From the IMG/VR virus record IMGVR_UViG_3300042566_002057, positions 32,001 through 96,000 of that record: 64,000 nucleotides of DNA; one strand, given 5' to 3'. Shown piece after piece: positions 3,760 through 20,779 of the stretch. The notes below the pieces were generated by a model. The model saw nothing but the letters and a program-made list of their open reading frames with translations. It was not told the origin of the DNA and did not search any database. The DNA comes from a virus. Each line of letters opens with the position of its first letter. Position 1 is the first letter of the stretch. The position numbers and the translations under genes were made by a program.

Positions 3760-3842
3760 TGTGGAGTCGGCTAATTGGCAGGCCACCTGACTTTGAATCA
3801 GGGAGATAACACTCAGTGTAGGTTCGAGTCCTACCTCCACAA
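3760..3842 (+). tRNA. tRNA-Gln(UUG) with long variable arm
   Basis: TGTGGAG/CTCCACA; CCTGA-CTTTGAA-TCAGG; variable arm GAG-ATAACA-CTC; GTAGG-TTCGAGT-CCTAC. Confidence 0.85.
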
Positions 3843-3849
3843 CAAAAAA

Positions 3850-3937
3850 CTAGGTGTGTAGGCAATTGGAAGCCGACCTGATTTGGGGTCAGGAATGAAC
3901 ATAAAGTTCTATGTGGGTTCGAGTCCCACCACTTAGA
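3850..3937 (+). tRNA. tRNA-Pro(UGG) with long variable arm
   Basis: CTAGGTG/CACTTAG with A73; CCTGA-TTTGGGG-TCAGG; variable arm GAAC-ATAAA-GTTC. Confidence 0.85.
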
Positions 3938-3943
3938 CAAATT

Positions 3944-6759: not shown

Positions 6760-8693
6760 AGATTATGCCACTCTTCGGAGTCTAGCTCTTCAAATCTTGT
6801 AGACAACTTAGTTTTGAGTTCATGAATAGATTTTCTATATTCTTCATCATCATCAAATTTCATTCTAGTTTGACCCTCAACTTTTATTATATCGTCTAGT
6901 TGTTTGATTTTAGTTTCTAACTTATTGAGAACATTCTCTAATACTTCATCCACATTTTTATTGTATTGTATAATATCAATCACTCTTGAGTTATCCATAT
7001 TTATCTCATAATCTAAAGCAATTGCATCTTCTTCTAATAACCATTCTACTCCATAGATATCTGGTGAGTCAGATGATTTAGGCTCACCTACTTTATAAAT
7101 TGTTCTTTCTAAAATCTTAGGGATATACTTATCTTCATAGTCTTTTGTAAGAAGGTCTTTTTGTATGTACTCATAATCATCCCAGTCAGAATATTTATCA
7201 CATAGTTTTTCATACCATAACATATTTCTCATTTCTCTGAGTTTGATTATGTCTCTATCATTCATATAACACCAGTTTCCTTCTGAATTTTCAACATCAC
7301 CATCTGTATAGATTTCAGTAATTGTTTTTACTGCTCTTTCATCCCAAATCCAATTTCCATAAATATCTGAATAAACAGCATCATCAACGTGAACATATTC
7401 ATCTGAATGCTCATCATAAACGATATCATCGTCATCTTGATGGTACCAACCTCTTCTTCTACTTGAACCGACATCAATTCTAACTGCATAATCTCTTAAC
7501 AAATGGTCGCCATATGCGTCTGAATAAACAGCTTCATCTTCTGGTATCATTCTATCATGCCATTCAGACCAAACACCACCTTCAACTTCACTATACCCAC
7601 CACCAGTATCTTCTAATATGTAACAACCTTCTTGGTCACTTTCTTGATTATCATCATTATAAAGTTTACCTATTCTTGGGTCATATCTTCTAAAAGTGTC
7701 CATATAAGGATATCTTTGATAGTCATAGTCACCTCCGAATCTATCAACTTGAACATCCATATCAACATTTATTTCATTTCCGTTATAAGTTATATTAGTA
7801 AAACTATGGTGATTATTATTTGTTTTGTAAATCCATCCTTGTTCTTTTGCAAAGTTTCTAAATTTATTAACATCTGAATCTTTAATAGTATATTGTCTAT
7901 CCATAAAATATTCAACACCTTCAAATTTTTCACCAATTCCACTATGAATTGATTTAAATTTCCAAATTAAGGCTCTTCCTAAAATTTTATCATCTTCTCT
8001 GAGAATTAATAATCTACAAACATCTGGATTTTTAACATAGATATTAAAGATGTTTCTTTTTTGAGCCATGCAAGAATTACCAAGTGTTCCACTTTTTTCT
8101 TTATAATTATCAGAGTTATACCAAAATGCGATATCATCTCCAGATACTAACTCAAAGTGTTCTCCAGATTTTTCTACAGCTGCCTTAAATGAGTTTACGA
8201 ATTCCTCGACTTGTTTAGAATTATATTTACCAGGAAATACTTTATTAACTAATCTACCTATAGCAATTTGATTTCTTCCTTTAACATATGGATCTACACC
8301 ATCATCAAAGTTACCCATTCCTCTAAGAGAACTTTTTAGATTACCATATTCTTTATTATGAATATACCAAATATCATCAGCTAAATCTTTGTTGGGTTTT
8401 TGGTCTAAGTCAATACCATTAATGTATAAATCTTTAAGATCCGGAAACTTTTCATCTAATATCTTTTTAACATTTCGCATTGTAGAGAATGAAAGAAATC
8501 CTTCTTTATCTAAATCAATAAAAGTAATATCTGGTTTTATATCAGTTGATTCTATACCTAATAAATCATCACTAATATCATCAGAAACTTTATTTAATTG
8601 TTTTCTTAAAGCGGGTGAAAAGTAAATCATCGATTCATTAATTAGACTTTCTAATAACAAATCTTCAACAAATGAATTATATCTATATAACAT
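6756..8693 (-). CDS. large acidic phage protein with internal repeats
   Basis: 645 aa; NSCM...GRALIW...MDRQY core; repeated AVYSDxYG units; AATATATA upstream. Confidence 0.7.
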   Translation of the reverse strand: MLYRYNSFVEDLLLESLINESMIYFSPALRKQLNKVSDDISDDLLGIESTDIKPDITFIDLDKEGFLSFSTMRNVKKILDEKFPDLKDLYINGIDLDQKPNKDLADDIWYIHNKEYGNLKSSLRGMGNFDDGVDPYVKGRNQIAIGRLVNKVFPGKYNSKQVEEFVNSFKAAVEKSGEHFELVSGDDIAFWYNSDNYKEKSGTLGNSCMAQKRNIFNIYVKNPDVCRLLILREDDKILGRALIWKFKSIHSGIGEKFEGVEYFMDRQYTIKDSDVNKFRNFAKEQGWIYKTNNNHHSFTNITYNGNEINVDMDVQVDRFGGDYDYQRYPYMDTFRRYDPRIGKLYNDDNQESDQEGCYILEDTGGGYSEVEGGVWSEWHDRMIPEDEAVYSDAYGDHLLRDYAVRIDVGSSRRRGWYHQDDDDIVYDEHSDEYVHVDDAVYSDIYGNWIWDERAVKTITEIYTDGDVENSEGNWCYMNDRDIIKLREMRNMLWYEKLCDKYSDWDDYEYIQKDLLTKDYEDKYIPKILERTIYKVGEPKSSDSPDIYGVEWLLEEDAIALDYEINMDNSRVIDIIQYNKNVDEVLENVLNKLETKIKQLDDIIKVEGQTRMKFDDDEEYRKSIHELKTKLSTRFEELDSEEWHNL

Positions 8694-8729: not shown

Positions 8730-9206
8730 ATGAATTTACCAGAACCATTTGTTATACTACTTATAGGTCCCCCACTTTCAGGTAAGACTACCTGGATACG
8801 TGAAAATTTTCCAACAACTGATGTTATTTCGCGTGACGAAATTGTAATGGAAGTTTATGGGTCTAAAAACTACACCGAAGCATTTGGTAGTGTTGATCAA
8901 AAAGAAGTCGATAGAATTCTTAATCAAAGATTTTTAGATTTTTCAACTGAAAAAAGAAATGTGATAGTTGATATGACTAACATGACTATTAAAAGAAGAA
9001 GAGCCACTCTTAATTACTTCTCAAATGATTACTATAAAATGGCTGTAATCTTTCCTATACTTTCAGATGATGAGTATGGAAGAAGAAATCTTAAAAGAAT
9101 TAAAGAAGAAAATAAAGATTTACCAATGCATGTTATAAAAAATATGATATCTTCTTACAATCCTATCTCACCAGACGAAGGATTTGATAAAGTAATTTCT
9201 TTATAA
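8730..9206 (+). CDS. polynucleotide kinase-like P-loop protein (AAA_33)
   Basis: GPPLSGKTTW, ISRDEI and VDMTN motifs; TATATTTG at 8718-8725. Confidence 0.8.
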   Translation: MNLPEPFVILLIGPPLSGKTTWIRENFPTTDVISRDEIVMEVYGSKNYTEAFGSVDQKEVDRILNQRFLDFSTEKRNVIVDMTNMTIKRRRATLNYFSNDYYKMAVIFPILSDDEYGRRNLKRIKEENKDLPMHVIKNMISSYNPISPDEGFDKVISL

Positions 9207-10845: not shown

Positions 10846-11352
10846 ATGTATATTAAAAGATTCAATGAAATGGTCGGTTTTGATGATGAAGAAACCAGAG
10901 ATAGATTAGAGATACCTAATCTCAGAGGTGAACTTGAGCCATCAAGTGTTTCCATGAAACCTTACTCTAAACCTTTTGAGTCAGAAACAACAGAGACTTT
11001 TGTTAAAAAACTATTATATAGATACCCTGTTTTAGACAGATTTCATGGAAATATTCAGAAAATTGATTCAACCGAAGTTTATAATTTTTACGCAACGAGC
11101 TTAGAACCCAAAGACGGAATGGAATTTTATACTCAATTATCATTAGCCTTTAATAAAGGTGACTACTATTGCTTAGCGGTATTAAGAGGACTAGAAGATT
11201 TTGATGATGAAGATAAATGGTATAAAAAAGACATTACTGTAGAAAATGTCGATGATACATTTGAGTTTGTAGATGCTTTTCTAAAAGCTTGTAAAGGTCT
11301 ACATATAGTTGCTAAATCTCATTTAGAGGAAGATAGATTTAGAAATAACTAA
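10846..11352 (+). CDS. hypothetical protein with N-terminal MYIKRFNE motif
   Basis: 168-aa ORF; AATATATA upstream. Confidence 0.65.
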   Translation: MYIKRFNEMVGFDDEETRDRLEIPNLRGELEPSSVSMKPYSKPFESETTETFVKKLLYRYPVLDRFHGNIQKIDSTEVYNFYATSLEPKDGMEFYTQLSLAFNKGDYYCLAVLRGLEDFDDEDKWYKKDITVENVDDTFEFVDAFLKACKGLHIVAKSHLEEDRFRNN

Positions 11353-11379
11353 TCTTTTTTAATTTTTTTTTATTATTTT

Positions 11380-11693
11380 TTTGGTCAATTAAAACTTTCG
11401 CTTTATATTTGTATAAATAAAGTCGGTAACGATTTTACGTTCATTGAAATATTAAGGGGAAGTTCCAGAGAGGCAAATGGGGTTTCAGTTGGTGCTGAAA
11501 TTGGTCTTAAGATCTTCGTAGGTTCGAGTCCTATCCTTCCCCACAAAAAGTAAATTTTTTTACAAAAGATTTGGTAGATTAAAAAAAAGTCATTATCTTT
11601 GTAAAACGAAATTGAGATAGGCAACGATTCAGATACAAGTCTCAATTTTTTTTACAAAAGATTTGGTAGAATAAAATAAAATATCTATCTTTG
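11380..11693 (+). promoter_or_regulatory. three tandem Bacteroidota-type promoters
   Basis: TTTG-N20-TAnnTTTG at 11380-11411, 11570-11601 and 11662-11693. Confidence 0.8.
11456..11543 (+). tRNA. Tyr-like tRNA body with aberrant 6-nt anticodon loop; identity undetermined
   Basis: GGGGAAG/CTTCCCC; D arm CCAGAGAGGCAAATGG; GTTTCAG-TTGGTG-CTGAAAT; long variable arm; GTAGG-TTCGAGT-CCTAT. Confidence 0.65.
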
Positions 11694-11706
11694 TAAAACA
11701 AAATTG
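11553..11706 (+). repeat. imperfect ~62-bp direct repeat (duplicated promoter unit)
   Basis: TTTTTACAAAAGATTTGGTAGA...TATCTTTGTAAAAC.AAATTGA at about 11553-11614 and 11644-11706. Confidence 0.85.
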
Positions 11707-11731
11707 AAAAAAGAAATATAAAAATACACAT

Positions 11732-11804
<73 letters not shown>

Positions 11805-11809
11805 CTAAA

Positions 11810-12706
11810 GAAAAACGTTCTTTGATTTATTGATTTTACAGATTCTTTGACTTCGGTCATTGATGAATGTAACGGCCGCTTATGGTCGATAAATAAACCT
11901 CGAAAGGGGGATAAAGTGGATACAAAAGCTAATTGTATCTGCGTCTTGAGAGTTCTTCGGAACAATTGAGGTCGAGTAAGCAAGTGGGGCACCACAAGTT
12001 CTGAGTAGTCGAGGGTAACACTGTAGACCAAATGAGTTTGTGACTGGGCAATTGTAGATTGTTCAGTTGACTTCGGAAGAGGAATAGGAATAACCCATAG
12101 GAATTTTGTAAGAAATAAAGACTCACCGGTTTTTACTATTGCGAGTTCCAACTCAAAAGGTGTCTTAAAGTTGAAAGACAATCAGTCGTACAGGTGGTGC
12201 TGTTGACTGACACTAATCTCTCTACCAAGAGAGTAGATAAACCGAAAGGTAAGTCGTGGTGAAGATATCTTGAAGAGTTGTGATGGAGGCATCACACGGA
12301 GTAGTCCAGTATTCTTGAGACCAAAAGTTTTGAGAGCTGAGAGGTGACCACTACTTCGACATATCTACTAGCACTAAATTTCTAACTGTTAATTGGAAAC
12401 ATTTAAAAAATAAGAAATCGAAAGTGTTACCTAGTTACTGATGAAAGGTACCTACTTAGTCGTGAGTGTTCACGGCCACTGAAGCTCGAAAGGCTGACGT
12501 GATTTCATCGAAAAACTTATAGAGGGTCGAACCTCGAATCAGCTCGCAAGGTTGAATAAGCGGATTAAATGGAGAGTAAACAGTAACTCAAGAAGTGGTT
12601 AGTCTAACTAACCGGTACTGACAGAATACTACTCAAAAGGTAGTGGATAAGAAGGGAAACAATAATCCAACTAAAGTTCTGTCGCCATAGGATGTAATCT
12701 CAGTCC
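11810..12706 (+). ncRNA. large structured RNA, GOLLD-like
   Basis: About 900 nt, GC-richer than flanks, no credible ORF, many UUCG/GNRA-capped hairpins, lies between tRNAs, ends in GGAT-GTAATCTCA-GTCC plus U tract; family assignment from size and context only. Confidence 0.7.
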
Positions 12707-12719
12707 TTTTTTTTTATAT

Positions 12720-12793
12720 GGTCGGTTCGTCTAGCGGTTTAGGACGATAATCTTTTCAGATTAGAAACAGAGGTTCGAATCCTCTACCGACTA
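12720..12793 (+). tRNA. tRNA-Glu-like with 18-nt anticodon arm
   Basis: GGTCGGT/ACCGACT; Glu-type D arm GTCTAGCGGTTTAGGAC; arm ATAATCTTTTCAGATTAG. Confidence 0.75.
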
Positions 12794-12877
12794 CGAGTTT
12801 TCGTAGTGGTTAACTTATCCTCTAAACAGAGGGGTCTGTCTCAGAGACAGGGTGGATACCCAACTCCACACTAATAT

Positions 12878-12984
12878 GGCCCGTTCGTCTACTGGACCCG
12901 TAAGGGAAACTGAAACTAAGGTGGAAGTTTAGGATGTCCAATTTTTCGATTGGAAGACAGAGTGTTCGAATCCTCTACGGGCTA
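12878..12984 (+). tRNA. tRNA-Glu-like with ~30-nt D-loop insertion and 18-nt anticodon arm
   Basis: GGCCCGT/ACGGGCT; GTCT...GGAT D stem enclosing the insert; TCCAAT-TTTTCG-ATTGGA; bulged T stem. Confidence 0.65.
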
Positions 12985-13008
12985 CAAATAAAAACCCAGA
13001 CGTGTACT

Positions 13009-13030
13009 CCCATCTTCGGATGGGTTTTTT
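13009..13030 (+). terminator. intrinsic terminator closing the RNA operon
   Basis: CCCATC-TTCG-GATGGG-TTTTTT. Confidence 0.85.
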
Positions 13031-13063
13031 ATGCTTTTTTTGATAATTGTGTAATATTATAAC

Positions 13064-13549
13064 TTGATGAATATAGAAATCGAAAGAAAATTTTTACTTA
13101 AATCAATGCCAGATGTTAAACCAACTGAAGTAATTAAAATTGAACAATGGTATTTTAAAAATAACGAAGGCATCTGGGAAAGAGCTCGATACTGCAACTC
13201 GAATATTAAAGGCAAGTATTATATACACACCATCAAAACAACAATCTCAAAAGGCGTAAATATGGAAGATGAACATCCTCTAACAAAAGAGGAGTTTAAC
13301 CTATTTGTTGAGAATTGTAAAAAAGATGGAGTAGAATCTAGAAGTATATCTAAAAAAAGATGTATCTATCCACAAGGTAAATTAAAATGGGAAGTTGATA
13401 AATTTGAAGGTCACCTAATTATTGCTGAAATTGAAATTCCGGAACAAGACTATGAAGTTGTAATTCCTGAACATATCAAAAAAAGAGTCATAATTGAAGT
13501 GACTGGAATAAAACAATTTAGTAACAAAAACCTTTCTAACAAAATCTAA
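13064..13549 (+). CDS. CYTH-domain (triphosphate tunnel) protein
   Basis: EIERKFL, WEVD and IAEIE motifs. Confidence 0.85.
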   Translation: MMNIEIERKFLLKSMPDVKPTEVIKIEQWYFKNNEGIWERARYCNSNIKGKYYIHTIKTTISKGVNMEDEHPLTKEEFNLFVENCKKDGVESRSISKKRCIYPQGKLKWEVDKFEGHLIIAEIEIPEQDYEVVIPEHIKKRVIIEVTGIKQFSNKNLSNKI

Positions 13550-13559
13550 TATAAATTCT

Positions 13560-14135
13560 ATGAAAAATTTAGAACTTAGAATGTATGGTTTAGTGCCATA
13601 TAATATCTCACCGATTCAACAAGCTATACAATTTGGACACGCAGTTGTTGAATATGGTCAAAAAGTAAAAGGACATGGATTTGAATTGGCTTCGGTTACA
13701 TACAATGATTGGGCTGATAACTGGAAAACATTTATCATCTTAAATGGTGGAACTACAAATCACAAAACTTCTTTGGAAGATGGATTACCGTTTGGTACTC
13801 TAAATAATCACTTACTTACTTTAATGGATAATGGTATTGACTTTGCTCAATTTAATGAACCAGACTTAGGTGATCAATTAACAGCAGTTGTATTTATTGT
13901 TGATGAAAGAGTTTTCAATCGTAAAAAGTATCCGGACTTTGAGGATTGGGTAATTGAAAACTATGGTGAATTAATAAGATCTGACTATTATACAACATCT
14001 TATATGTTAGCTCAAAGAATTAAAAACTCTGAAAGTAAAAGTGACCAAAAAGTTTATCAATCCTGGATTAAATTTATTGGTGGTGAAAAGAATGTTTTCT
14101 TGAGAGACTTTCTAAAAAACTTTAAACTAGCATGA
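13560..14135 (+). CDS. peptidyl-tRNA hydrolase 2-like protein
   Basis: AIQFGHA...FNEPDLGDQLTAV pattern. Confidence 0.65.
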   Translation: MKNLELRMYGLVPYNISPIQQAIQFGHAVVEYGQKVKGHGFELASVTYNDWADNWKTFIILNGGTTNHKTSLEDGLPFGTLNNHLLTLMDNGIDFAQFNEPDLGDQLTAVVFIVDERVFNRKKYPDFEDWVIENYGELIRSDYYTTSYMLAQRIKNSESKSDQKVYQSWIKFIGGEKNVFLRDFLKNFKLA

Positions 14136-14535: not shown

Positions 14536-16644
14536 ATGGAAGAAAACAAACAATACTTAGAGACTGTACCTGATGTAAGAGCAGCTCTTGAAGACGATGA
14601 TGATGATAGAGGATATGGTTCCTCAAAAAAATCAGAGTCTAAATCTAAGACTCCGGTCTTAGATACTTACAGCCGAGACCTTACTAAAATGGCCGAAGAT
14701 GGTAGACTTGATCCTATCGTAGGTAGAGAAAAAGAAATTGAAAGAGTTTCACAAATTTTATCTCGTAGAAAAAAGAACAATCCAATTTTAATTGGTGAAC
14801 CAGGTGTTGGTAAATCTTCTATTGCGGAAGGTTTAGCTTTAAGAATCGTTCAGAGAAAAGTTTCAAGATTACTTTTCAATAAAAGAATCGTTATGCTTGA
14901 CTTAGCTTCTATGGTTGCTGGTACTAAATATCGTGGTCAGTTTGAGGAAAGAATTAAAGCTCTTATGGCTGAAATGGAAAAAGAACCAGATGTAATTCTT
15001 TTCATTGATGAAATTCACACAATGATTGGGGCTGGTGGTGCTTCTGGATCATTAGATGCTTCTAATATGTTCAAACCGGCACTTGCACGTGGTGAAATCC
15101 AAATCATCGGAGCTACTACTTTGGATGAATATAGAAAACACATTGAGAAAGACGGAGCTCTTGAAAGAAGATTCCAAAAAGTAACTGTTGAACCTGCTAC
15201 TTCTGATGAGTCAATTCAGATTCTTAATAACATTAAAGACAAGTATGAATACCATCATAATGTTACTTACACTGAAGGTGCTATCAAAGCTTGTGTTGAA
15301 TTAACAAATCGTTATCTTACTGATAGACATTTACCAGATAAAGCAATTGATGCTTTAGATGAAGTAGGTGCTCGTGTTCATATTTCTAACATCAACGTTC
15401 CTAAAGAAATTACAGACATTGAGAAGAAGATTGTTGAAATTAAAGAAAAGAAAAACGATGTAATTCGTTCTCAAAAATATGAAGAGGCGGCTCGTCTTCG
15501 TGATGTTGAACGTCAACTTAATACCGAACTTGAAGAAGCAAGAAAAGCTTGGGAAGAAGAACAAAAAAATCATCGTCAAATTGTAAATGAAGAAGCTGTT
15601 GCTGAAGTTGTTTCAATGATGTGTGGTATTCCTTTACAAAAGATTTCACAAAACGAGAATGACAAACTTGCTAAGATGCCAGAGAGTATTCAAGGTAAAG
15701 TAATTGGTCAAGATGAAGCTGTTGGAAAGATTGTAAAAGCGATTCAACGTGGTCGAGTTGGTCTTAAAGATCCTAATAAACCAATTGGTTCATTTATGTT
15801 CTTAGGACCTACGGGTGTTGGTAAAACACAATTGGCTAAAGTTTTGGCGAAGTATCTATTTGACTCAGAAGATTCTTTAATTAGAATTGATATGTCTGAG
15901 TATATGGAAAAATTCGCAGTATCTCGTTTGATTGGAGCGCCCCCGGGATATGTTGGTCACGATGAAGGTGGTCAGTTAACTGAAAAAGTTAGACGTAAAC
16001 CTTATTCGGTAGTTCTTTTAGATGAGATTGAAAAAGCTCACCCTGAAGTATTTAACTTACTTCTACAAGTTCTTGATGATGGTCAATTGACTGACTCACT
16101 TGGTAGAAAAGTAAACTTTAAGAACACCATTATCATTATGACTTCTAATACTGGTTCTCGTCAGTTGAAGGACTTTGGAACTGGTGTAGGATTTGCTACT
16201 AAACACAAAGAAGATAAAAAAGATGAAGAAGCAAATGCTGTGATTGAAAAAGAACTTAAAAAGAAATTTGCTCCAGAATTCTTAAACCGTGTTGATGATG
16301 TTGTGATGTTTAACTCTCTTGAAAAAGAAGACATCAATAAAATTATCAAAATTGAGTTAGAAAGACTTGTTGATAGAGTGAAACAAATGGAATACAATCT
16401 TGAAATTACAGATAATGCCGTTGAATACATTGCTTCACAAGGATTTGATCCTCAATACGGAGCTCGTCCTCTAAAAAGAGCGATTCAGAAAAATGTAGAA
16501 GATGTTCTTACTGAAGAAATTATTACATCAAATCCAGAAAAGAATTCACTTATGATATTGGATTACAATTCTGAGGATGATAAAATGGTCGTCATTTTAG
16601 AAAAGAAGAAAAAAACTACTCGTAAGAAGAAAACTGAAGAGTAA
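14536..16644 (+). CDS. clpC: ClpC-type AAA+ ATPase lacking the N-terminal Clp repeat domain
   Basis: Two Walker A motifs ([16 protein letters not shown]); UVR coiled coil; [11 protein letters not shown]; VGF loop. Confidence 0.9.
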
Positions 16645-19328: not shown

Positions 19329-20155
19329 AAAAGAAAATTAAAATAGACTTTACAGACTTCTGGGGTGGATTTGATAAGACAAATAATTACTTCTACAACT
19401 TATTGAAAGATGAATTTGATGTGGTGATAACTTCTAATCCTGACTTTTTATTTTTCTCTGTTTTTGGTAACCAACATCAAAATTATAAGTGTAAAAAGAT
19501 TTTTTACACTGGTGAGAATGTTGCACCACCGTTAGGATATTGTGATTACTCTTTCTCATTCGATTATTTAGATGATGTGAGAAACTATAGACTACCACAT
19601 TATTTATTATATGATGGTTATTATGAATTAGAAAGAGAAAAGATAATTGATAATAGTTTATCCAATCGTAAGTTTTGTAATTTTATTGCTTCTAATGGTA
19701 ATTGTCAAGAAAGAAATCAATTTGTTCAATTATTATCACAGTATAAAAAAGTAGATTGTGGTGGTCAATGGATGAATAACATTGGTTATGCGGTAACTGA
19801 TAAGAGAAAATTTCAATCAGAATATAAATTTTCCATCTCATTTGAGAATAATGCTTATAGACCTCAATTTCCTGGATACACGACTGAGAAAATTATGGAA
19901 CCTATGACAGTCAACTCAATGCCAATATACTGGGGTAATCCAGAGATTTATAAAGAATTTAATACTAAATCTTTTGTAAATTTTTACGATTTCAACAATA
20001 TAAACGAAATGGTTGACTATATTATAGAACTCGATAAGAATGATAACTTATATTTAGATAAGTTAAGAGAACATTGGTTTGTTAATAATGAAACACCAAC
20101 TAATAATAAGATAGAAAATATAAAGTCTTTCTTATATAAAATATTTAATAACTAA
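19325..20155 (+). CDS. alpha-1,3-fucosyltransferase (GT10)
   Basis: YKFSISFEN...GYTTEKI...PIYWG. Confidence 0.88.
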   Translation: MKKKIKIDFTDFWGGFDKTNNYFYNLLKDEFDVVITSNPDFLFFSVFGNQHQNYKCKKIFYTGENVAPPLGYCDYSFSFDYLDDVRNYRLPHYLLYDGYYELEREKIIDNSLSNRKFCNFIASNGNCQERNQFVQLLSQYKKVDCGGQWMNNIGYAVTDKRKFQSEYKFSISFENNAYRPQFPGYTTEKIMEPMTVNSMPIYWGNPEIYKEFNTKSFVNFYDFNNINEMVDYIIELDKNDNLYLDKLREHWFVNNETPTNNKIENIKSFLYKIFNN

Positions 20156-20779
20156 ATGACTGGAATAGTAGTAGCAAGATACAATGAAGACACAAAGTGG
20201 TTAGAAGAATTTAATGATTTTAATATTCACTTGTATAATAAAGGTGAAGATGAATTAGTAAATTCAATAAAACTACCAAATGTTGGAAGAGAAGCACATA
20301 CTTATCTAACACATATTGTTAATAATTATGATAATCTTGATGATGTTATAATTTTCACTCAGGGTAATCCTGATCACGCCTCTGATATAAATGAATTTAG
20401 AAGTTTAGAAAACTTCAGTGGTTACAAAACATTTGTTGAATATTATGGGAATATGACTGATGGTGAAATAATATCTAGAAAGAATCAACCAGGTGCTTAT
20501 TGGATGGCTTTTTCACAAAGAAGTCAAATAACACCAAATGTTGTTTACAAATTTCTATATGGAAAAGAAATTTCTAATTGTTGGGTTGCTGTTTGTGCAA
20601 TTTTTGCGGTAGACAAAGAAACAATATTAAAACACCCAAAAGAAAAATACCAACAATTACTTATGTTATTTGATAGACCAGATTTTAACTGGATGGCTTA
20701 TGTTCTTGAATATAGTTGGACACTTATGTTTAAACCAGAGGGATTCAATACTGAAGAAGTAAAAGAAAATATAATATAA
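20156..20779 (+). CDS. DUF3431-like protein
   Basis: IVVARYNED, LPNVGREAHTYL and FTQG motifs. Confidence 0.75.
   Translation: MTGIVVARYNEDTKWLEEFNDFNIHLYNKGEDELVNSIKLPNVGREAHTYLTHIVNNYDNLDDVIIFTQGNPDHASDINEFRSLENFSGYKTFVEYYGNMTDGEIISRKNQPGAYWMAFSQRSQITPNVVYKFLYGKEISNCWVAVCAIFAVDKETILKHPKEKYQQLLMLFDRPDFNWMAYVLEYSWTLMFKPEGFNTEEVKENII

Follow-up and report, generated by a model that had tools for sequence, protein, structure and literature searches.

GOLLD RNAs have been known as a family since 2009, and a cage structure has been available since 2025. The RNA concerned, env-38, is an 833-nt marine RNA described as lying 'downstream of Met-tRNA', and it was seen by cryo-electron microscopy to form a D7 14-mer cage (Kretsch et al. 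2025, PMC12286853; PDB 9MEE). Its residues 1-420 make up the cap and residues 421-833 the ring, with a disordered linker, residues 497-538, that faces the interior (PMC12286853). ROOL, another large ornate phage RNA found near tRNA islands, also builds an RNA-only cage (PMC12286853), but that cage is octameric, and its sequence and fold are unrelated to those of GOLLD. The present work concerns a candidate GOLLD gene at about 11810-12715 of a 64,000-nt stretch of the IMG/VR virus record IMGVR_UViG_3300042566_002057, where an initial annotation had proposed a GOLLD-like RNA embedded in a tRNA operon. We call the whole 64,000-nt stretch the window; coordinates refer to it, and to its + strand, unless stated.

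The window RNA and env-38 share the family, the 5'-domain subtype, a core of similar length (~836 versus 833 nt) and a tRNA-Met gene upstream. They differ in source, env-38 being marine and the window freshwater or other; in carrier, the window copy belonging to a relative of 635-642 kb Bacteroidetes megaphages; and in the presence, in the genomic window copy, of a conserved leader (a boxA-like word and a stem-loop, P0) that lies outside the solved construct. Two further systems serve as points of comparison. The antitermination complex of rRNA (rrn) operons resists Rho and assists RNA folding, and eukaryotic long non-coding RNAs of the MALAT1-mascRNA type undergo tRNA-like processing at their 3' ends.

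Results

Identity of the RNA

We consider, with a probability of about 0.9, that this is a complete GOLLD RNA gene belonging to the env-38 subtype, with a core of ~836 nt and a leader of ~65 nt. The Rfam covariance model for GOLLD, RF02032, matches 12297-12706 at 298.9 bits (E = 1.6e-84), about twice the gathering score of 150, and does so over the whole model (1-416 of 416), which confirms an assignment that had been made from size, context and a 3' hairpin. A single GOLLD copy is present in the 151,950-bp virus record containing the window. When 11300-13100 was scanned at E <= 1, Rfam returned, besides GOLLD and tRNA, only insignificant manA and tmRNA fragments; ROOL, group I and II introns, RNase P and tmRNA were ruled out by the Rfam scans even at this permissive threshold. 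Rfam models the conserved 3' region alone, and the 5' half was examined separately. The parts of the core are:

11872..12296, + strand: GOLLD 5' domain (cap domain in env-38), collinear with env-38 residues 1-420 and containing covarying pairs
12297..12706, + strand: GOLLD 3' domain (ring domain), the part modelled by Rfam and matched by RF02032 at the score given above
12359..12420, + strand: A/U-rich variable internal linker, unaligned and unpaired in the homolog alignment (A2)

The published GOLLD core maps to ~11872-12707, and a processed unit of 11806-12719 is predicted, for a total length of ~836-914 nt; the originally proposed limits, 11810-12715, were essentially correct.

Homologs were retrieved with two short motifs, one from each half, which yielded 49 IMG/VR contigs; the full-length element is common to 37 of these, at 65-84% identity. 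Folding of an alignment of 19 non-redundant sequences (A2) with RNAalifold gave 188 pairs, in which 97.3% of cells are standard pairs, compared with 37-44% in slid controls where the 3' partners had been shifted by 1-3 columns. Compensatory double changes were found at 123 pairs versus 23-38 in the slid controls, the covariation score was 0.623 versus 0.09-0.14, and none of 500 shuffles attained the observed values. Both halves of the RNA show this behaviour, with compensatory double changes at 63 of the 98 pairs of the 5' domain (11873-12295) and at 59 of the 87 pairs of the 3' domain (helices 21-35). For the + strand the folding energy is -257.5 kcal/mol (z = -3.89; none of 20 dinucleotide shuffles was as good) and the - strand has z = -1.05, so that only the + strand folds better than its shuffles. 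An Rfam search and covariation with homologs were among the checks that the initial annotation had itself proposed, and the GOLLD assignment withstood both.

Other elements of that annotation could be traced in the sequence. G+C is 0.38-0.43 over 11700-13050 against 0.25-0.31 outside, in agreement with the GC-enriched stretch it described, and the five tetraloop hairpins it named were all located, as read from the sequence:

11848-11859: TGAC-TTCG-GTCA
11952-11963: GTTC-TTCG-GAAC
12218-12233: CTCTCT-ACCA-AGAGAG
12241-12250: ACC-GAAA-GGT
12281-12296: GTGATG-GAGG-CATCAC

It had also seen no credible open reading frame (ORF) here. The sole long one, of 179 aa, is antisense with a TTG start (11642-12181), and its existence is what could be cited for the stretch encoding a protein. 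However, this ORF crosses the tRNA-Met gene and is unconserved, its aligned frame being interrupted, in 17 of 18 homologs, by stops and by indels that break the frame. With the substitutions on the + strand compensatory and no other Rfam family matching, a protein-coding gene and an RNA of another class are both refuted, and we give them practically no chance.

The location next to tRNAs is habitual for GOLLD: 36 tRNA genes were called in the record, and some homologs are placed within arrays of 22-26 tRNAs. The flanks are those originally described, a tRNA-Met gene upstream (11732-11805) and a tRNA-like gene downstream (12720-12794).

Predicted contacts between subunits

The env-38 construct sequence was taken from Supplementary Table 4 of PMC12286853 and mapped onto the window by eye through local motifs, the printed sequence being short by ~17 letters (70 per line being due). 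The two 5' domains have a common order of motifs, GGCCGC..ATGGTCG..AAATAAA..GAAAG..GGATAAAGTGG..GAGGGTAAC..TTCGGAAGAG..AATA.GAATAAC. The construct starts at a position equivalent to ~11872 and ends on the same ..TCTCAG.C motif at 12706-12707, and the domain boundary, the position of the linker and the 3' end agree between the two RNAs. Mapping by flanking motifs makes ~12380-12420 the counterpart of the disordered linker of the env-38 cage interior (residues 497-538). A 28-mer specific to env-38 had no match in the viral contig collection.

Bridges between subunits were mapped from the published residue table and the alignment columns. Sequence signatures are kept for nine of the ten published bridges (B1-B3 and B5-B10):

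11902-11905: B1, GAAA tetraloop, invariant, with a U.G receptor at 12460/12475
12011-12019: B2, GAGGGUAAC
12075-12078: B3, GGAA
12193-12199: B5, GGUGGUG, with ACCA at 12225-12228
12322-12326: B6, CAAAA loop
12418-12419: B7, junction UC, with loop GA at 12488-12489
12527-12530: B8, self-complementary UCGA, with palindromic CG (GC in other copies)
12545-12549: B9, GC within CGCAA
12634-12638: B10, CAAAA loop

By its likeness to env-38, the RNA probably self-assembles into a D7 14-mer nanocage of the same kind. Two points count against this: the prediction is drawn from homology, and B4 shows no convincing loop-loop complementarity past a GG:CC core (GGAGGC versus CUCACCGG), its kissing loops being less complementary than those of env-38, where B4 consists of five Watson-Crick pairs. 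A weaker B4 would also suit a GOLLD homolog that forms no 14-mer cage and works as a monomer or a smaller oligomer, for instance by scaffolding or sequestering factors related to tRNA. Such a departure could be brought about by the conserved stem-loop P0, which is missing from the solved construct and could alter the cap, and the solved GOLLD structures number just one. We nevertheless regard a cage-less RNA as unlikely, given the nine bridge signatures that are retained, the collinearity of both domains with env-38, and the covariation of B7 and B8, of the sort from which the authors of PMC12286853 argued for intermolecular pairs. At B7 the homologs have UC/GA, GC/GC or GG/CC, and env-38 has GA/UC.

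A leader word resembling those of rRNA spacers

The ~65-nt leader between tRNA-Met and the core consists of a near-invariant word followed by a stem-loop:

11817..11832, + strand: boxA-like word GTTCTTTGATTTATTG in the GOLLD leader, recognised by its conservation in homologs and its likeness to rRNA spacers
11836..11872, + strand: leader stem-loop P0, in which TTACA/TGTAA closes the TGAC-TTCG-GTCA hairpin, with compensatory changes

The near-invariant word, GTTCTTTRAAWTATTR at 11817-11832, is present in 18 of the 19 non-redundant env-38-type leaders and in the L045/L049 clade, while the leader around it diverges. The published env-38 construct begins downstream of P0, whose closing helix becomes ATATC/GATAT, TTATC/GATAA or TCTTT/AAAGA in homologs.

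The boxA consensus of gamma-proteobacteria is GYTCTTTAANA (PMC5725501). Against this consensus the window word scores 9/11 and most homologs 10/11. The 16S leader of a Sphingobacterium genome has GTTCTTTAAGA, and the 16S-23S spacer of the same genome has GTTCTTTGACATATTGA directly after tRNA-Ile and tRNA-Ala; one homologous GOLLD leader (L039) is identical to this spacer word over 17 nt, and the window word agrees with the Bacteroidota spacer word GTTCTTTGACATATTG at 14 of 16 positions. This 16-mer was found in 8 of the 81 Bacteroidota genomes sampled, versus 1 for the reversed control, and in each of the five loci inspected it follows the spacer tRNAs and precedes the 23S rRNA gene by 40-125 nt. 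The window word is situated 12 nt after tRNA-Met and ~40 nt ahead of the core, on a transcript whose start we infer. In the record, boxA-like words stand beside RNA genes at 11439 and 11817 only, and not at five other tRNA clusters. The 11-mer GTTCTTTGAAA has eight sites in Sphingobacterium, none of them beside an rRNA gene. GOLLD and boxA were not found together in the literature searched.

Like an rRNA operon spacer, the locus has a host-type promoter, a tRNA and a boxA word followed by a large structured untranslated RNA, and up to 17 consecutive bases of the word are identical in Bacteroidota spacers. The product differs, being a phage cage RNA, and of boxB/boxC or a long RNase III stalk none has been demonstrated, the locus offering only a low-complexity A/U pairing of leader and trailer. 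In the latter, which minimum-free-energy and centroid folds have in common, A-rich 11806-11816 pairs with the U-run 12707-12716 in the manner of an rRNA leader-trailer stalk; its low complexity puts it beyond the reach of covariation. The comparison best fits a phage copy of the host's rRNA-spacer design (tRNA, boxA, large structured RNA), to which Nus factors are predicted to bind.

Alternatively, the word could contribute to the fold of the mature RNA, mark a processing site or act as a promoter element, and convergence in A/T-rich DNA would then explain why it looks like rrn boxA. Several facts speak for this and against a Nus site: the window word has 2/11 mismatches to the gamma-proteobacterial consensus, the close homolog L002 is without it, and it was not found in the more divergent GOLLD clades examined. 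In addition, covariation cannot separate a protein site from an RNA tertiary contact in a word that is near-invariant, and one-mismatch words in the window are about as frequent as chance allows (21 observed versus 12.4 +/- 3.2 expected). On the other hand, convergence has to account for up to 17 identical consecutive bases shared with the Bacteroidota spacer word in the same placement between a tRNA and a large RNA, for the retention of the word in 18 of 19 leaders amid diverging surroundings, and for its presence beside RNA genes in this operon alone within the record. We judge such an origin the less probable of the two, while giving it considerable weight.

The 3' end and its tRNA-shaped elements

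Downstream of the core the operon continues as follows:

12707..12719, + strand: T-rich spacer of 13 nt, too short for a promoter, as read from the sequence
12720..12794, + strand: tRNA-Glu mimic 1, with an 8-nt anticodon loop, CTTTTCAG; 47.8 bits with the Rfam tRNA model and an odd anticodon in ARAGORN
12795..12877, + strand: structured spacer of ~80 nt with three covarying hairpins, conserved, without an Rfam match
12878..12985, + strand: tRNA-Glu mimic 2, whose D-loop holds a structured insertion of 32 nt; the T-stem is bulged and the anticodon loop, TTTTTCGA, has 8 nt
13009..13030, + strand: intrinsic terminator closing the RNA operon, with a 6-bp stem, four G-C pairs and T6

The gene at 12720-12794 had been labelled tRNA-Glu-like. 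The tRNA body is right, but a canonical tRNA-Glu has a 7-nt loop with U33 and the anticodon at 34-36, whereas here the loop has 8 nt, or 6 if a C-G pair forms, and because of this 8-nt loop we file the gene as a tRNA-Glu mimic and not as tRNA-Glu. Its loop and covarying stem are conserved in L001, L002, L036 and L038. The counterpart in L033 and L039 is an acceptor/T-arm minihelix, the minimal substrate of RNase P, and in the close clade the element is never lost. Mimic 2 was called by neither ARAGORN nor Rfam, but it too is conserved in the close clade and has covarying stems. The hairpins of the spacer between the mimics are CCTCT/AGAGG, GTCTGTC/GACAG and GTGGATACC..CTCCAC. Possible roles of the mimics are as RNase P handles, as quadruplet readers or as nuclease decoys. 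Quadruplet decoding was set aside, as the standard genetic code fits the record, with ~96% ORF coverage, and a normal tRNA-Glu(UUC) is present elsewhere in it.

Because mimic 1 starts 13 nt past the GOLLD 3' end, trimming by RNase P is suggested; in four other GOLLD clades a tRNA or tRNA-like gene begins 8-19 nt past the end. As in the MALAT1-mascRNA type, a tRNA-shaped element abuts the 3' end of the RNA, and RNase P would make the mature 3' end. The differences are that MALAT1-mascRNA is eukaryotic and that the window element is tRNA-Glu-derived and from a phage, its cleavage being a prediction.

A different 3' end would result from intrinsic termination at the T-run 12707-12715, which would uncouple the mimics and leave them as unrelated, separately expressed neighbours. 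Nine T follow the last GOLLD hairpin, a point that weighs against processing, and several homologs have T-runs at the same place. That hairpin, however, has only ~4 bp and a 9-nt loop, which in env-38 makes tertiary contacts, and the terminator scan does not call the site. The next gene is reached after 13 promoterless nucleotides, and the arrangement is conserved: in the close clade the tRNA-like element may shrink to a minihelix but always persists. A boxA complex, moreover, would pass such a site without stopping. Termination at the T-run thus appears distinctly unlikely to us.

Promoters and genes ahead of GOLLD

Promoters of Bacteroides and Flavobacterium have the consensus TTTG-N17-23-TAnnTTTG. 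This pattern was found 26 times on the + strand of the record, versus 6.9 +/- 2.1 in Markov simulations, and three such promoters stand within 320 bp ahead of the RNA genes:

11380..11411, + strand: promoter P1, TTTG-N20-TAtaTTTG, by pattern scan, preceding the type-II tRNA-like gene
11439..11450, + strand: first boxA-like word, GTTCATTGAAAT, conserved in the close clade (alignment A4)
11456..11542, + strand: type-II tRNA-like gene with a 6-bp anticodon stem and a 6-nt loop, given a 2-nt 'anticodon' by ARAGORN
11570..11601, + strand: promoter P2, by pattern scan
11662..11693, + strand: promoter P3, by pattern scan, the likely start of the tRNA-Met/GOLLD transcript
11732..11805, + strand: tRNA-Met (CAU), initiator-like, called by ARAGORN and at 61.9 bits by Rfam

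A P3-type promoter stands directly ahead of the GOLLD leader in L005, L008, L010, L019 and L036. From P2 it is only ~45 nt to a hairpin with T8 (TTGAGA..TCTCAA, ~11612-11650), and this short unit may represent a small RNA, an attenuator or what is left of a 62-bp duplication. The type-II tRNA-like gene, which has a long variable arm, is preceded by its own promoter and boxA-like word; its loop is UUGGUG, with UUGUAA or UAGUAA in relatives, and its anticodon stem covaries (CAG/CUG, ACG/CGU and ACA/UGU; L001, L033, L039).

The upstream tRNA had been named tRNA-fMet. Judged by what we take to be initiator features, this is plausible in view of the 1x72 mismatch and the A11:U24 pair, but just two of the three G-C pairs of the anticodon stem are present; the mismatch, U1xU72, recurs in the phage genome LR745206. 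Several otherwise normal tRNA genes elsewhere reach 84-90 nt through insertions (window 3760-3938; record 7228-7316, 20111-20196 and 20374-20463), as in the 12 nt found in the variable region of the second tRNA-Gln.

Carrier phages and neighbouring genes

The sole relatives in the phage collection are LR745206 (634,780 bp) and LR756502 (642,428 bp), each with a single GOLLD that is 76% identical over 95-98% of the element. Both belong to the Mahaphage clade, rank among the largest phage genomes described by Al-Shayeb et al. 2020 and have Bacteroidetes as their predicted hosts (PMC7162821). LR756501 (735 kb) and LR756504 (636 kb) have no GOLLD, and GOLLD is not mentioned in the megaphage literature searched, Al-Shayeb et al. 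2020 included. IMG/VR labels the 152-kb record a provirus of 68% completeness. Because the GOLLD locus and a ClpB-like gene are syntenic with the 635-642 kb megaphages, the record probably represents one part of a far larger phage genome.

One scan of 185,579 species genomes with a 5'-domain pattern revealed no prophage copy. Among the genome contigs it gave four matches. Two of them, in a Sphingobacterium chromosome and in a metagenome-assembled genome (MAG) of Clostridiales, are due to chance; the other two are true fragments, each immediately following a tRNA on a very short MAG contig (2,092 and 501 bp), and they point to no reliable host.

The ClpB-like gene, at 14536-16644 and thus ~2 kb downstream of GOLLD, encodes a ClpB/ClpC-like double AAA+ protein of 702 aa without the N-domain, and is 84-85% identical and syntenic in LR745206 and LR756502. 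A ClpB/C-like gene is found 1.3-3.4 kb downstream of GOLLD in four clades (L001, L010-L012, L020-L022, L025, L030, L032, L033, L036, L039 and L043), and no other neighbour is common to them; its orientation is flipped in distant clades and it is absent from clades in large tRNA arrays. This recurrence could reflect common synteny or a functional link, and we offer it as a lead only.

Genes flanking the operon at 8730-9206, 13064-13549 and 13560-14135 encode a P-loop kinase of the polynucleotide-kinase type (AAA_33; 'polynucleotide kinase' in PHROG), a weakly CYTH-like protein and a PHROG 'hydrolase'; all three are syntenic in close relatives and hint at RNA-end chemistry. In other clades (L034, L047, L050 and L052) a Pistol ribozyme occurs ~310-360 nt upstream of the GOLLD 3' domain, and some divergent clades have this upstream ribozyme and no leader word. 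A tmRNA gene is located within ~2 kb downstream of GOLLD in L048, L050, L051 and L052, and L058 has the order tmRNA, tRNA-Met, GOLLD.

Discussion

The core finding is an ordinary one for a specialist: the element belongs to a known family and to a known, structurally solved subtype, and as one more member of that subtype it adds little to the catalogue, although it widens the range of the family to phages related to the largest ones known. What is new is the wiring of the gene, which resembles that of an rRNA operon (promoter, tRNA, boxA match, punctuation by tRNA mimics, terminator) and is conserved across the env-38-type subfamily.

From this wiring a model for biogenesis can be drawn. Transcription would start from P3 and include tRNA-Met and GOLLD together. 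At the boxA word, NusB/NusE and their partners would turn RNA polymerase into an antitermination complex of the rRNA type that escapes both Rho-dependent and intrinsic termination over ~840 nt of untranslated RNA rich in hairpins; this complex may also help the RNA to fold co-transcriptionally. Co-transcription from P3 with boxA/Nus antitermination through GOLLD is favoured by a small degree only. The 5' end would be produced by RNase Z or another 3' processing enzyme acting after tRNA-Met, and the 3' end by an RNase P cut at 12719/12720, ahead of mimic 1; that tRNA-processing enzymes define both ends of GOLLD is a proposal towards which we lean. It counts against the model that we infer expression, the RNA ends and co-transcription alike.

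A broader and more tentative proposal, to which we give slightly less than an even chance, is that env-38-type GOLLD genes are rRNA-operon mimics, whose RNA would be made and folded with Nus factors at rRNA-like levels and whose tRNA mimics would be RNase P handles and maybe also partners or cargo of the cage. The placement of the gene suggests that the cage has a role connected with translation or the biology of tRNAs while the phage grows lytically.

The wiring provides a testable model of how an 840-nt untranslated cage RNA is produced and trimmed, and links GOLLD more tightly to the translation and tRNA machinery. If the model is true, the biogenesis of GOLLD would be open to genetics, through boxA, the Nus factors and RNase P, in a Bacteroidota host.

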